Part shown: piece by piece, positions 1,124-14,342 of the stretch | How the letters are laid out: each line of letters begins with the position of its first letter | Numbering within the stretch: the first letter of the stretch is position 1 | DNA from: Thermoproteaceae archaeon | GTDB lineage: Archaea > Thermoproteota > Thermoprotei > Thermoproteales > Thermoproteaceae | Assembly (NCBI GenBank): GCA_020833025.1 | Contig: JAJHRB010000001.1 | Coordinates: forward strand, 6,943-70,942 | Direction of reading: 5' to 3' | DNA: 64,000 nt | Translations under genes and position numbers: made by a program | Notes under the pieces: generated by a model | The model's database searches: none | The model's input: the letters and a program-made list of their open reading frames with translations, nothing else | What the model was told of the DNA's origin: nothing

Positions 1124-1793
1124 ACTAGCCCTGCGATGAGTTCTGCCTCCTCTCTACTCTCAACCGGCGGCACGGGGTCGATATCTATTACACGCATATC
1201 GCCATTGTAATCCCCTAGCGTCACTCTCGCGTAGAGGAGGCCCAGGTGCGAGAGCGCGTCCGCGACGAGCCCCCTGGCGCTATTGATCGTTGCGAAGACC
1301 GACAGCATTCTGCTTGGTCTCGGCGCGATGACTGTCACTCTCGCGAGGGGATTGCGCATGTAAGCGCGATGCTCGAGCACGCTTTTCGCGCCCTCCATGC
1401 TTGTCACCGGACCGTCTAAGTTCAGCCTCCACGCAGTCAGCAACAGCCACGGCCCCCTCATATCGACCTTTTCGAGCGAGGCGTCTGCGCATACAACCGC
1501 ATACGGCGGGCCGAACTTCGGGAGCCAGCTCAGCCTGTTGACGGCCAGTAGAGATGCCACTGGCGGGTTTATGCTGCGCTTTGCCAGAAGCCCGTAAGCC
1601 GCTGCCACGTACGGGTTCCTGATCCTCACTACTGCCGTGCCCGGAATGCTTCTGACGGGCATCTCTGTCACGTTCAGCGTCACTGCCCTGAGGCCCCTCC
1701 GCGCCAGCGACTCAACTATGAGCCGGTCGGAAACAGTCGGGGTGTCTGTGATGATATATACTGCATCGTCGCCGCCCGTGGCCCCTGATTCAT
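1120..1793 (-). CDS. LysX/ArgX (RimK-like) ATP-grasp-related protein, short and divergent; the promoter-proximal AUG at 1793 joins the ORF only via a -1 shift at 1785-1782
   Basis: The frame is open upstream of the tracked GTG (1683) and reads VYIITDTPTVSDRLIVESLARRGLRAVTLNV, which resembles a LysX N-terminus; C-terminal VIDIDPVP resembles the ATP-grasp ExN strand; first gene before argC/argB. Confidence 0.55.
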
Positions 1794-1849: not shown

Positions 1850-1857
1850 TTTAAAAA
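1850..1857 (+). promoter_or_regulatory. TATA box of the thrC/aspartokinase unit
   Basis: TTTAAAAA about 22 nt before the AUG at 1878 (leaderless spacing). Confidence 0.65.
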
Positions 1858-1877
1858 AGACGGGGACCTAAAACATT

Positions 1878-3031
1878 ATGGACGTGCCATCGGGGACGGC
1901 GCGCCGTACCTGAAATGTGTACTGTGCGGAGCTAGATACGAGCAGAACTACAGGCTGTACACGTGCCCCAGGTGCGGAGGCCTTCTTGAGGTGACCATCC
2001 CGCACAAATACTGGAGCCCGCGGGGCAGAGGCATCTGGCGGTATGCATCAATGCTGCCGCTAGGGAGCGGCATCTCGCTGGGAGAGGGCGGCACTCCGCT
2101 GGTTGAGTCGAGTCTGAGTAGTAACCTCTACATTAAGTTTGAAGGGACTAATCCCACCGGGAGCTTTAAGGATAGAGGAATGGCCCTTGGCGTTACAGTT
2201 GCGAGGGAGAGCAGGGCCGAGAAGGTGATAGTCGCGTCCACAGGAAACACTGCGGCGTCTGCCGCAGCGTATGCCGCGAGGGCTGGGCTGAAGTGCTACG
2301 TGCTGCTGCCCCGGGGCAACGTCGCGCGCGGCAAGCTCATACAGGCAGCACTTCACGGCGCTGAGATAATTATGATTAACGGCTTTTTCGACACTGCTCT
2401 CAGGTACGTGCTCGAGCACGGCACCAAGTACGCATATCCGCTGAACAGTTTCAATCCGTGGAGGCTGGAAGGCCAGAAGACAATTGCATTTGAGATATAC
2501 GAGGAGCTTGGATGTCCAGATTACGTAATAGTGCCCGTTGGAAATGCAGGCAACATCTCTGCAATATGGAAGGGGTTTAGAGAGCTGGGAGAGCTCGGTC
2601 TCTGCAGAAAGCTTCCTAGAATGGTAGGCGTGCAGGCAGAGGGCGCGGCGCCGCTTGCCGTGGCGTGGCAGAGAGGTCTCAAGAGCCCGCTATTTGTTGA
2701 CAAGCCCAAGACAATAGCAAGTGCAATTAGAATAGGCAGGCCGATTAACTGGCCCAAGGCAATGGCGGCAGTAGAGCAGTCAGGCGGCCTCTTCATCGCG
2801 GTTTCCGACAGCGAGATTGCCGAGGCTCAGAGGCTTCTGGCATCTAGAGACGGCATCGGGGCGGAGCCGGCGGGGGCTGCCTCCGTTGCAGCCGCGCTGA
2901 GGCTCAAGGTGAGCGGCACTGTAGTGGCCGTCGTCACGGGGCACGCACTCAAGGACCCCGACGTTATCGAAATAAGCGTCAGGGAGATAAAAGATTCAAG
3001 AGAGCTCCTCCTACTGCTGGAGGGAGCGTGA
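1878..3031 (+). CDS. thrC: Threonine synthase; the AUG at 1878 joins the ORF via a -1 shift at 1892-1895
   Basis: NPTGSFKDRG PLP-lysine motif, ASTGNT, VPVGNAGN; the Zn-ribbon CVLC..CPRC lies in frame upstream of the tracked GTG at 1991 with no in-frame ATG/GTG/TTG before it. Confidence 0.93.
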
Positions 3032-4026
3032 AACCCGTCGTGAAGATAGGAGGCTCTCTCCTTAAGAGCGCCGAGGATTTCGTCAGAGCTGCCCGCTTCG
3101 TAGTCTCACAGAGAGAGCCGCCGGTCGTGGTAGTCTCGGCGATGAAGGGCGTCACAGATGCCTTGCTCGAGCTTGAGAAGTCCAGAAGCATTTCGATCTA
3201 CTACGAAATCGCGCGGAGGCACGCCTCTGTTGCTGAAGCACTCGGCGTGCTTGAAGCCACGAGAGCACCGCTCAAGGAGCTGAAAGACGCGCTGAAAATG
3301 CCGAGAGAGGCTTGGACGCGCGATTACTTCGCCTCATTCGGCGAGAGACTCTCCGCGATAATATTACACGCCGTGTTGAGGAGGCTTGGCACTCCCGCAA
3401 AGCTATTCACGGCTCCGCTGCTCACAGATGACAATTACGGAAATGCAGAACCGCTAGCGCTTGAGAGTGCAGACGAAATAGCGGAGCCAGGGACTGTGGC
3501 GGTCGTCACGGGGTATATAGGCAGGAGCAAAGAGGGGAGGTTCACTACTGTTGGGCGGGGTGGCAGTGATTACGTGGCCACCTTCATCGGCAGGGAAATA
3601 GGCTCAAGGAGAGTCTCGCTAATAACGGAGGCTCTCGGTGTGATGACCGCAGACCCCAGAGAGGTTGAGGGTGCAGAGCCGCTCCCGCTGCTCTCGATTT
3701 ACGAGGCCCTTGAGGCCGCAAAGCTTGGCGTCAAACACTTCCACCCGCGAACGTTCGTGCCGCTGCTGGATGCAGCAAGCACAGTAGTTGAAGTGAGAAG
3801 CTATGAAAGCCGCGGGACGCTCATTGGACACTTCTACCCGCCGCCTCCCTGCAAGGTTGTTATAAGGTGCGAGGGAGGTAGTTACATCATAGGGCTGGCG
3901 GCGTACGAGCTAACAAAGCTCGGCGGCGTTCTACTGAGCAGGTATGCCGTAAGGCTAAACATGGCGCCGCGAGACGCTCACGAGCTCTTCATCAGGCCGC
4001 ACCTCAAGACGCTCTTCAAGCGGTAA
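3028..4026 (+). CDS. lysC: Aspartokinase with a short C-terminus
   Basis: VVKIGGS, VVVSAMKGVTD, SFGERLSA, GRGGSDY, MTADPR; GTGA overlap with the thrC stop. Confidence 0.88.
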   Translation: MKPVVKIGGSLLKSAEDFVRAARFVVSQREPPVVVVSAMKGVTDALLELEKSRSISIYYEIARRHASVAEALGVLEATRAPLKELKDALKMPREAWTRDYFASFGERLSAIILHAVLRRLGTPAKLFTAPLLTDDNYGNAEPLALESADEIAEPGTVAVVTGYIGRSKEGRFTTVGRGGSDYVATFIGREIGSRRVSLITEALGVMTADPREVEGAEPLPLLSIYEALEAAKLGVKHFHPRTFVPLLDAASTVVEVRSYESRGTLIGHFYPPPPCKVVIRCEGGSYIIGLAAYELTKLGGVLLSRYAVRLNMAPRDAHELFIRPHLKTLFKR

Positions 4027-6325: not shown

Positions 6326-6994
6326 ATGATGCGCCTAGTACTGGCAGAGGCCTCGCTCGAGCTCGTGCCGCCAGAAATACGGAGCCACCCAGCAATAATA
6401 GCCGATGCCAGGAGGCGGGGCAGGAGGCCGGAGGAGATGCTACTCGACCGGGCCCGGCACCATCCGGCAATGCTGGCACTTAAGGACTCTCTCAGGCGGG
6501 GGAGGCCGGACATAGTGCACCAGGCATTACTCGTGTTCCAGTATAGCCTCCTGAATAGGCGCGGGCTGGGCAGAGCATACGTCCACACGCGCGATGACTA
6601 CGTTATCGTGATCCAGCCGGAAACGAGAATGCCCCGGAATTACAATAATTTCATTGCATTAATCGAGCAACTCTACGCCATTGGCAGGGTCCCGCCCCGA
6701 GGGAAGCCTCTCATCGAGCTTCAGAGAAAGGCCCTGCAGTCGCTGCTCAGAGAGCTCGGAAACCGCTGGATCGTGCTTCACGAGAATGGCGTGAAGGTGT
6801 CTCTGGCTGAAATTGGCAAAGCGCTTCTGAGCTCTGTCGTCGTGATCGGCGGCTTTCCGCACGGAGACTTCTTAAATAAGTGGGTCATCGAAGCGGCCGA
6901 AGCCGTGTACAGGCTAGGCGACGAGGTCATGGATGCGGCGCAGGTGATCTGCAAGGCCGTCACTGCCGCAGAGACCGCCGCCGGCCTTCTCTAA
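6326..6994 (+). CDS. nep1: 16S rRNA pseudouridine N1-methyltransferase Nep1 (SPOUT)
   Basis: LAEASLELVP, RGRPDIVH, RMPRNY, IGGFPHGDF. Confidence 0.92.
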   Translation: MMRLVLAEASLELVPPEIRSHPAIIADARRRGRRPEEMLLDRARHHPAMLALKDSLRRGRPDIVHQALLVFQYSLLNRRGLGRAYVHTRDDYVIVIQPETRMPRNYNNFIALIEQLYAIGRVPPRGKPLIELQRKALQSLLRELGNRWIVLHENGVKVSLAEIGKALLSSVVVIGGFPHGDFLNKWVIEAAEAVYRLGDEVMDAAQVICKAVTAAETAAGLL

Positions 6995-8874: not shown

Positions 8875-10091
8875 ATGGCGAGCAGCGCCTCGGGGCGAGC
8901 AGAATAGTACTTGCCTACTCGGGAGGTCTGGACACCACGGTAGCAATAAAGTGGCTAAGGGAGAAGTTCAATGCAGAGGTTTATACTGTCACTGTTGACG
9001 TCGGGCAGGAGGAGGACTTTGCAGAGATTGAGGAGAGGGCATACAAGGCAGGCGCAGTGCAGCACTTCTACATAGATGCAAAGAGAGAATTCGCCGAGGA
9101 ATACATATTTCGCTCTATTTTAATGAATGGAATGTATGAAGGGCTATACCCACTGGGGACCGCTCTGTCTAGGCCCCTAATAGCTAAGAGGGTTGTCGAG
9201 ATAGCCAGAAGGGTCGGAGCAGACGCAGTGGCGCACGGGTGCACCAGCAAGGGGAACGACCAGGTCAGGTTCGAGCTGACAATTAAGGCGCTCGCGCCTG
9301 ACCTGAAAATCATAGCGCCGGCGAGAGTGTGGGGCATGACGCGCGCTGAGGAGCTTGAGTACGCCAAGCGTCACGGACTGCCTGTGAGCGCCGAGCACAG
9401 GAAATTCAGCATTGACGACAATCTTTGGTCGAGGTCAGTAGAGGGGGGCCCGCTGGACGACCCGGCCGCGGAGCCCTCGGAAGAGGTCTTCAAGTGGACG
9501 GTCGCGCCAGAGAAGGCGCCAGACAAACCGACGTATCTGACGCTAGAATTTAGAGACGGGCTCCCAATTGCGATAAACGGCGAGAGAATGGACCCGCTCG
9601 CACTGGTGACCGCGCTTAACGGCATCGGCGGTGCAAACGGTATCGGCAGGATAGACCACATGGAGAGCAGGGTAGTGGGGCTTAAGAGCCGGGAGGTATA
9701 CGAGGCGCCAGCAGCCGTGATACTGTACCACGCGCACAGAGACCTCGAGAAGCTCGTGCTCACGCCGCGCGAGCTGAGATTTAAGCACGGGATTCTTGAC
9801 ACCACGTGGTCGGACCTAGTGTATCAGGGCCTGTGGGTCGAGCCGCTGCGCGTGGCGCTTGAGAGGGCAGCAGAGGAGATGGAGCGGTGGGTGACCGGCA
9901 CGGTGAGAGTAAAGCTCTACAAGGGCGCCCTCTGGATAGTGGGGAGGGAGTCGCCGTATAGTAGCTACAGCAGAGAGCTCGCCGACTACAATAGAGGGTG
10001 GTATCCGAGCGACGAGGAGGCCAGGGGATTCATTAAAATGTGGGGCCTCCACTCGCTGATCGCCATCAGGAGGCGCCGGCTGGCCGTCTAG
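8875..10091 (+). CDS. argG: Argininosuccinate synthase; the AUG at 8875 joins the ORF via a -1 shift at 8892-8895
   Basis: The essential [14 protein letters not shown]-loop lies in frame upstream of the tracked GTG at 9057 with no canonical in-frame start before it; [29 protein letters not shown]. Confidence 0.94.
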
Positions 10092-13522: not shown

Positions 13523-14342
13523 GCTAGAGACTGTGCGTACTGCAGGGCCTCGTCTCTCGATAGTCTCTGCCGGGGAGTTCCCTCGATGCCCGGCACTCCC
13601 CTCCCCCTCGCAGTTCTGGCAATAATCACTGCGGGTCTTGTGCTGCTCTCGGCCCTTTCAAGCGCCGAGACTATCTGCTCGTGGTCGTGCCCGTCGGTCT
13701 CGAGTACTTCAAAGCCGAGCGCTCTGAGCCTGCCCGGCAGGTCCCCCTTGCGCAGTACCTCCTCAACGCGCCCGTCGAGCTGTATGCCGTTGTAGTCCAC
13801 TATCGCGAGGAGATTAGTCAAGTTGTAGTGTGCCGCCGCGGCGAAGGACTCCCAGCTTAGCCCCTCGTCGAGCTCTCCGTCGCCAGTTATTAAGTACACG
13901 CGACCTCTGTTGCCCCTCAGCTTGAGGCCCAGGGAGAGGCCGACCGCCATGCTTATTCCCAGAGCCAGCGAACCTGAGTTGGGCACGTCGACAAACGGCG
14001 TGTCTGCCTCGGGGTGGTTCTGGAGGCGGCTGCCCAAGCTACCGGACTCCCTCAGCTCGTCGAGCGCTAGATAGCCCATTGCCGCGGCGAGCGCGTAAAT
14101 CGCGTGCACCGCGTGACCCTTAGACAGCACTAGGTAATTCCTGTTGCCCACGCCATTTGCTAGATTGAACTTCACTCTGCCAGTGCCGTAGAGCGCTACC
14201 AGTATGTCGAGCACCGAGAGAGACGACCCGAGGTGCATCCCGGGGTCGTAGCTCGCCATTAGGAGCAGGTATAGTCTCGCCCTGCACGCCAGCTCTCTCA
14301 GCTGCTGAACCCCGACCTCTCTAGTGCTGAGTACCCCTGCAT
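13510..14342 (-). CDS. tktN: Transketolase, N-terminal subunit; the AUG at 14342 joins the ORF via a -1 shift at 14337-14334 or 14313-14310
   Basis: HLGSSLS, LSKGHA, GSL..G, TPP motif GDGELDEG..N; the conserved first helix LRELACRARLYLLL is in frame upstream of ATG 14259 with no canonical start before it. Confidence 0.9.

Follow-up and report, generated by a model that had tools for sequence, protein, structure and literature searches.

Among the systems described so far, the +1 frameshift of bacterial prfB (release factor 2) offers a close parallel to the arrangement found at thrC, the threonine synthase gene, in a 64,000-nucleotide stretch of a Thermoproteaceae archaeon (GenBank assembly GCA_020833025.1, contig JAJHRB010000001.1, forward-strand positions 6,943 to 70,942). 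This whole stretch is hereafter called the window, and it belongs to a metagenome-assembled genome (MAG). We propose, with a probability of about 0.8, that thrC is expressed via a conserved programmed -1 ribosomal frameshift that doubles as a threonine sensor. In prfB, as is predicted for thrC, a short 0-frame open reading frame (ORF) ends early unless a slippery P-site codon shifts, slow decoding in the A site triggers the shift and the gene's own product sets the supply of the decoder, giving negative feedback. However, prfB shifts +1 on CUU U, its stop codon is sensed by a protein factor and an upstream Shine-Dalgarno element acts as stimulator, whereas the thrC shift would be -1 on G GGG, at a sense codon read by an aminoacyl-tRNA, on a leaderless archaeal messenger and with no stimulator found.

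The proposed event is identical to hungry-codon frameshifting, in which the A site stands empty and the P-site tRNA re-pairs one base upstream with no structure needed. Leftward (-1) shifting of this kind is established in Escherichia coli (Gallant and Lindsley 1992; reviewed in PMC8211752, PMC5009743), and a one-tRNA regime under aminoacyl-tRNA limitation has been described on dnaX mRNA (PMC8211752). In E. coli it is a starvation error or a property of laboratory constructs, and its natural extent has been called unclear (PMC5009743), whereas the thrC case would be selected, conserved and shared by many genes. Leader-peptide attenuation (thrL, trpL, hisL, ilvL) similarly has a 5' leader ORF with codons for the product and senses charged tRNA by ribosome speed, but works through terminator/antiterminator hairpins and codon runs; the thrC device has one codon per site, no terminator-like structure, the reading frame as its read-out and a leader that is itself the N-terminus of the enzyme. 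The T-box riboswitches of Firmicutes also serve biosynthesis and aminoacyl-tRNA synthetase genes with one own-amino-acid "specifier" codon each. There, however, an RNA binds uncharged tRNA and controls transcription termination or initiation, whereas the thrC device, which has no T-box-like RNA structure, would sense in the ribosomal A site. Biosynthetic operons of mycobacteria are also headed by leaderless short ORFs with cognate codons, which act as amino-acid-responsive attenuators; these are described as polycysteine-encoding and cysteine-responsive, with no mention of a frameshift (bioRxiv 10.1101/834739).

In Archaea, fucA1 of Saccharolobus solfataricus was in 2021 the only -1 programmed ribosomal frameshift reported (PMC8211752), and a 2016 recoding review contains no case from Thermoproteales. 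As predicted for thrC, the archaeal -1 frameshift of fucA1 is required for a full-length enzyme. In fucA1, however, the site reportedly is a heptamer, A AAA AAT, that lies in the middle of the gene ahead of a putative structure; it is confined to a single gene and has no link to a cognate codon. Our literature search, with most subscription journals outside its reach, returned no description of the present system, and thrC appears to be one member of a general, previously undescribed amino-acid-sensing frameshift system.

Frame layout and conservation at thrC

The 0-frame ORF that begins at ATG 1878-1880 reads ATG GAC GTG CCA TCG GGG ACG GCG CGC CGT ACC TGA, which encodes MDVPSGTARRT and a stop, with Thr at codons 7 and 11 of the 11. 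A run of four G (G4, 1892-1895) directly precedes the first Thr codon, all as the initial annotation had read it. The coordinates of this and the other features are collected in the table. Behind TAG 1838-1840 the -1 frame stays open from position 1841 to the thrC stop at 3031, with the readings ..AIGDGAPYLKCVLCGARYEQNYRLYTCPRCGG.. and ...GDGAPYLKCVLCGARYEQNYRLYTCPRCGG.... No ATG, GTG or TTG is found in the ThrC frame before GTG 1991, itself past the Zn ribbon. The trans-frame product, with the predicted N-terminal peptide MDVPSGDGAPYLK, matches TIGR00260 (thrC) at 264.9 bits (cutoff 167.1) and carries the SFKDRG lysine motif for pyridoxal phosphate (PLP), threonine synthase being a PLP enzyme of fold type II. 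The alignments to NF004170 and NF006050 begin at residue 12 of this product, in the Zn ribbon, so the ribbon belongs to the ThrC family. The earlier proposal that a -1 shift recovers the Zn-ribbon N-terminus is supported.

The ribbon is also translated in the ThrC frame, as follows from the pairwise codon differences in its 28-codon block: 2583 synonymous vs 1888 non-synonymous in that frame, against 416/4031 and 523/3832 for the remaining frames. Purifying selection acts on the gene body. Upstream, a TATA-like box starts 28 nt 5' of the ATG in the window and at -26 to -28 in 19/22 orthologous loci; given this spacing, the mRNA is taken to be leaderless, beginning at or next to the AUG, a type of messenger first described in Pyrobaculum aerophilum (PMC6028130).

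The layout was compared across 24 Pyrobaculum and Thermoproteus genomes (22 plus 2 extra Thermoproteus), about 10 of which are complete and in a single contig. In every one a TATA box is followed by an ATG that is +1 relative to thrC, by 1-3 further codons and then by TCG GGG ACR, with the 0-frame stop 9-14 codons from the leader start. TCGGGG is unchanged in 24/24, and the 8-mer TCGGGGAC is invariant even though three of its bases are synonymous positions for ThrC; in the Zn-ribbon block next to it, none of the 28 third-codon positions is constant. The slip motif is therefore constrained at the nucleotide level. The distance from ATG to TCG is 6, 9 or 12 nt and that from GAC to the first Cys codon 15, 18, 21, 24 or 27 nt, with no stops in the segment. 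Length changes on both sides of the site are thus multiples of three, which fits translation that starts at the ATG and crosses to the ThrC frame at the motif. Some genomes do have in-frame starts farther upstream, but these lie beyond the TATA box. Directly 3' of GGG, 16 of the 22 genomes have ACA and 6 have ACG; the two extra Thermoproteus also have ACA. The Thr codon, whose conservation the initial annotation had proposed as a check, is thus present in 24/24.

This conservation excludes an assembly or sequencing error or a pseudogene. Such an explanation could draw on the origin of the window in a 126-contig MAG and on the error-prone nature of homopolymer runs, but an identical layout recurs in 24 genomes, about 10 of them single-contig, and the gene body is under purifying selection. 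Correction of the frame at the RNA or DNA level, by polymerase insertion of a G into G4 or by G4/G5 phase variation, is also very unlikely. A one-base insertion in the run would yield the same protein, and runs of at least three identical bases are inherent to most slip sites; however, G4 is very short for polymerase slippage, the "off" length is identical in 24/24 assemblies (G4, not the G5 that would have undone the earlier reading, including in the complete genomes), the lineages with G GAC or G GAT have two-base runs in which the scheme is unworkable, and it gives no reason for the cognate codon that comes next. A single metagenome contig does carry G5 plus a second extra G, which seems to favor this scheme, but with two extra G it is still out of frame. 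That contig (JGI metagenome 2028778003, positions 401-440) has a Pyrobaculum-like thrC leader, TCGGGGGACAGG, which exceeds those of its relatives by the fifth G of G5 and by a further G. Its thrC (P0005) is called as a continuous 385-aa ORF from GTG, still out of frame with the ATG. We suspect that the extra G are homopolymer sequencing errors.

Another way to dispense with a frameshift would be a non-canonical in-frame start for ThrC, for example CUG 1910, with the short ORF as an ordinary upstream leader peptide that modulates this initiation. CTG 1910 of the window does overlap the leader stop (CTGA), the same Leu position is ATG in one relative and TTG in two, and in a more distant genus (g2) an in-frame GTG overlaps the leader stop. 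However, the position is CTC, CTT, CTA or TTA in 16/22 genomes with no other near-cognate start conserved, and the segment from the slip site to the Cys codon, which includes sequence upstream of CUG 1910, has stayed in phase and free of stops through at least four length changes (15-27 nt). Because the Leu codon varies and the phase is preserved upstream of it, initiation at CUG 1910, which the initial annotation had named as a refuting outcome, fails. The leaders of IleRS, TrpRS and other genes discussed below are only 3-6 codons long with the enzyme frame opening right at the AUG, and we consider a non-canonical start a highly improbable explanation.

On the proposed mechanism, translation would start at AUG 1878 of the leaderless mRNA and reach codon 6, where peptidyl-tRNA-Gly sits on GGG 1893-1895 with ACG (Thr) in the A site. 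With Thr-tRNA plentiful, ACG would be decoded, the 0 frame kept and translation stopped at UGA 1911 after 11 codons, with no ThrC made. When Thr-tRNA is scarce, the A site would remain empty and tRNA-Gly could slip -1 onto G1892-G1894 with perfect pairing; GAC (Asp) would then enter the A site and the product would read MDVPSG-DGAPYLKCVLCG... through ThrC. The GTGA overlap between thrC and the next gene would carry translation on into a downstream amino-acid kinase. Since the GTG of the kinase gene overlaps the thrC stop, the switch probably gates both genes, co-regulating them by translational coupling. Negative feedback like that of prfB would result, with a -1 shift at sense codons in place of a +1 shift at a stop codon. 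An architecture of the prfB/antizyme type is present at thrC, and threonine dependence is something we infer solely from the cognate-codon rule described below. The ribosomal nature of the shift, its response to tRNA charging, its efficiency and its putative restriction to the first few codons are likewise what we infer from the layout.

The sequence around the site is simple. No X XXY YYZ slippery heptamer occurs at thrC, where the site is (A/T) TCG GGG A and only G GGG re-pairs. No stable 3' structure at 90 C was found in the 60 nt after the site, either in the window or in 14/22 orthologues, and the lack of a conserved 3' structure agrees with what is expected of single-tRNA hungry-codon slippage. 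No terminator-like site is present in 1600-2100, and the leader overlaps the coding sequence of the enzyme. The palindrome to which the initial annotation had tentatively given a role in pausing is indeed present in the window, but it is absent from relatives and forms no stable structure at 90 C, and we place it outside the mechanism. A Shine-Dalgarno-like upstream stimulator was also considered: GGAGGGGAT is seen by eye in many Pyrobaculum leaders, and is absent from the window and several relatives, and this candidate was set aside.

Features of the thrC locus and of cognate-codon leaders in the MAG and in Thermoproteus tenax
Genome	Feature	Position	Strand	Remarks
MAG (window)	TATA-like box TTTAAAAAA of the thrC promoter	1850..1858	+	AT-only 8-mer
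MAG (window)	0-frame leader ORF	1878..1913	+	leaderless AUG start; stop TGA 1911-1913
MAG (window)	slip site	1890..1895	+	E-site UCG 1890-1892, P-site GGG 1893-1895; tRNA-Gly re-pairing possible on G1892-G1894
MAG (window)	putative A-site Thr "sensor" codon ACG, 0 frame	1896..1898	+	
MAG (window)	palindrome ACGGCGCGCCGT, 12 nt	1896..1907	.	present, outside the mechanism
MAG (window)	thrC body, -1 frame	1895..3031	+	GAC 1895 to TGA 3029-3031; trans-frame product MDVPSG-DGAPYLKC..., 384 aa
MAG (window)	N-terminal Zn ribbon CVLC...CPRC	1916..1975	+	no in-frame start codon 5' of ribbon
MAG (window)	amino-acid-kinase gene (aspartokinase-like)	3028..4026	+	Pfam AA_kinase E = 6e-35; GTG start overlaps thrC stop (GTGA)
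MAG	thrC			codon after GGG ACG (Thr)
MAG	isopropylmalate synthase (IPMS)			codon after GGG CTC (Leu)
MAG	homocitrate synthase			codon after GGG AAA (Lys)
MAG	citramalate synthase			codon after GGG ATC (Ile)
MAG	carA			codon after GGG CGA (Arg)
MAG	argG leader ATG GCG AGC AGC GCC TCG GGG CGA..	8875..8907	+	Arg codon
MAG	trpE			codon after GGG TGG (Trp)
MAG	trpB2, two genes			codon after GGG TGG (Trp)
MAG	cysK/M-like PLP enzyme			codon after GGG TGT (Cys)
MAG	ilvB			codon after GGG CTC (Leu); Leu site only
MAG	pheA-like			codon after GGG TTT (Phe); identified by eye, N-terminal motif
MAG	tktN-aro operon leader	14298..14342	-	CAG GGG TAC (Tyr), TCG GGG TTC (Phe); Transketolase_N domain
MAG	IleRS	contig C50 9365	-	codon after GGG ATC (Ile); identified by eye
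MAG	lysX-like/argC operon, divergent leader ATG AAT CAG GGG CCA...	1716..1793	-	Pro codon; -1 shift needed
T. tenax	thrC			TCG GGG ACA
T. tenax	argG			TCG GGG CGA
T. tenax	trpE			TCG GGG TGG
T. tenax	TrpRS			ATG GGG TGG
T. tenax	CysRS			TCG GGG TGT
T. tenax	IleRS			CAG GGG ATC
T. tenax	aroD-chorismate mutase			ATG GGG TAT (Tyr)
T. tenax	ilvB, three tandem sites	121185-121247	+	TCG GGG GTT, TCG GGG CTC, GAG GGG ATC (Val, Leu, Ile)
T. tenax	lysX-like operon, three tandem sites	112398-112466	+	GCG GGG AAA, GCG GGG CCA, GCG GGG CGA (Lys, Pro, Arg)

Cognate codons across the genome

The idea of threonine sensing receives strong independent support, of a comparative kind, from a genome-wide match between codon and product. 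The whole MAG and the complete T. tenax genome were scanned for ATG codons at TATA spacing that open a short 0-frame ORF, with NNG GGG among its first codons, and for a -1 ORF that has 100 aa or more and lacks an upstream in-frame start; the identity of the A-site codon was not used, and genes were identified with NCBIfam and Pfam. In each genome about 15 genes for amino-acid biosynthesis or aminoacyl-tRNA synthetases begin with the same device. The codon after GGG specifies the gene's own product at 13/14 sites in the MAG (expected 0.99, P = 1.8e-16) and at 12/13 in T. tenax (expected 1.38, P = 9e-13), with expectations taken from base composition and the Pro site counted as a mismatch, and the observed match counts were not reached in any of 100,000 label permutations. 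The cognate sets were assigned after the fact and are the textbook end products. The paralogous isopropylmalate, homocitrate and citramalate synthases provide an internal control, carrying Leu, Lys and Ile codons, respectively. Slip sites lie at leader codons 2-11, with a strong preference for TCG as the E-site codon (15/29 sites in the two genomes).

These data bear on the possibility that the -1 recoding is real and required but constitutive, setting a fixed low expression with no response to threonine. The frame layout and its conservation prove only a need for recoding, but a constitutive shift would leave unexplained why the A-site codon is cognate to the pathway at 25/27 sites in two genomes, and why the three related synthases differ in their codons as they do. 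We therefore consider constitutive recoding unlikely.

Returning to a regulated shift, we think it likely that a genome-wide code of "frameshift attenuators" operates in Thermoproteaceae and, with variations, in other Thermoprotei. At the 5' end of leaderless mRNAs a slippery G GNN would be followed by a single codon for the pathway's own amino acid, and a hungry A site would send the ribosome into the enzyme frame. Tandem sites would then act as OR gates, for Val/Leu/Ile on ilvB and for Lys/Pro/Arg on the lysX-like operon. In T. tenax all three tandem ilvB sites open onto the IlvB frame, an arrangement that resembles an OR gate for the three amino acids and parallels multivalent attenuation. 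The gene set resembles a T-box regulon, since IleRS, TrpRS and CysRS carry the device with their own codon; the T. tenax sites of this synthetase set are at +206398, +744687 and -192498, and one leader of this type reads ATG GGG ATC TGA.

The lysX-like operon is the site counted as a mismatch. Its leader has a Pro codon in the MAG and Lys, Pro and Arg codons in T. tenax, which suggests that the operon also feeds proline synthesis, perhaps via ornithine. The 224-aa protein that heads this argC/argB (lysY/lysZ-type) operon has no Pfam or NCBIfam match. A generalized scan of the two Thermoproteaceae genomes for other G GNN slip codons returned only noise. The MAG has 18 tRNAs according to aragorn.

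Distant lineages and points against a threonine switch

Across the Thermoprotei the slip codon varies by lineage (GGG, GGA, GAA or GAY), always with a G before it, and the Thr codon comes next, exceptions aside. All 6 genomes of a sister family have the leader ATG GAA ACN or ..CTG GAA ACA (M-E-T...), with the ThrC frame open from the leader start; 2/6 lack any in-frame start. The leaders of other families in this class are ATG AAA TTG GGA ACA, ATG GGC TTG GAT ACA, GTG ATA AAA CTG GAC ACG or ATG GAA ACA TAG, and they too lack an in-frame start; a MAG labelled Desulfurococcales has TTG GAA ACA, as noted by eye. In terms of P-site re-pairing in the -1 frame, G GGG pairs perfectly, and G GGA, G GAA and G GAY keep first-position pairing; the second position becomes a G.U pair in the case of GAA and GAY. 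The Thr codon pointed out by the initial annotation thus reaches well beyond its own family, and as comparative evidence these lineages are more telling than the Pyrobaculum and Thermoproteus set alone. In the sister family, argG leaders similarly place an Arg codon next (CTG GGA CGA; CTG GAA CGA CGT; TTA AAC CGG with a GTG start), while trpE lies inside its operon rather than at the head and is uninformative. One of these argG leaders contains T TTA AAC, which we take to be the classic coronavirus-type slippery heptamer.

Several lineages have an ordinary in-frame thrC start. In Thermoprotei archaeon KM4324-16 a tandem duplication of the leader (GAGCGTGATGAA..) about 60 nt 5' of thrC creates an in-frame upstream ATG, with the ATG AAA TTG GGA ACA unit retained. 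This may represent a recent escape from the frameshift requirement.

Comparison of genomes shows how the frames are laid out and that this layout is conserved; it also shows that the slip motif is invariant, that the Thr codon is kept and that a genome-wide rule links codon and pathway. A number of points weigh against a threonine-sensing frameshift and have to be set beside these. All support for the shifted protein and the mechanism is comparative. Conservation of ACN in thrC alone would be weak evidence, because GAC (Asp) of the shifted frame partly forces a Thr codon. Genus g2, represented by two MAGs, has a different thrC leader with no Thr codon after a slip site. The sensor would be a single codon, vs the codon runs of bacterial leaders. 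Finally, NNG-GGG pairs are common and not avoided within long ORFs, with 2115 observed vs 2368 expected in the MAG (0.89) and 2702 vs 2180 in T. tenax (1.24). Because such internal pairs are not avoided, efficient slippage must hinge on another feature, or be low-level everywhere. Features that might confine it to the start of the message are closeness to the 5' end, the shortness of the nascent chain or UCG in the E site; alternatively, slippage may be weak everywhere and matter only for proteins that cannot be made by another route.

The g2 leaders deserve separate description. At thrC the leader is ..GGA CCG TGA, its stop overlapping an in-frame GTG start of the enzyme, and at argG it is ATG GGA TGA, its stop overlapping an ATG start; neither has a cognate codon after a slip site. 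These leaders may be a termination-reinitiation variant or reflect loss of the switch.

Annotation and meaning for the Crenarchaeota

Public ThrC records from Pyrobaculum and Thermoproteus range from 325 to 403 aa, and of seven that were compared (P0002, P0003, P0005, P0007, P0009, P0021, P0028) none has the trans-frame N-terminus. Four of the seven start inside or after the Zn ribbon, the annotated starts of this kind being MFAPNY.., MCGAEY.., MWRYASM.. and MVGDIYW.., and two at upstream in-frame codons, one of them through the promoter: the 403-aa record has an upstream TTG start and is read through the TATA box. The two records from Pyrobaculum islandicum differ by 72 residues. The same annotation problem probably affects every gene in the set.

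If the proposed reading is true, an element of about 9 nt, comprising slip codon and sensor codon, would be a complete amino-acid sensor with no RNA structure or protein regulator, and small enough for use as a sensor in synthetic biology. It would be the first natural regulatory use of hungry-codon frameshifting, giving that phenomenon a physiological role, and the archaeal -1 frameshifts would number dozens instead of one. Alongside attenuation and T-boxes, it would be a third general way of sensing amino acids. Such a device would suit growth near 100 C, where RNA hairpins melt and mRNAs are leaderless, and would explain how amino-acid biosynthesis and aminoacyl-tRNA synthetase genes are regulated in these Crenarchaeota.

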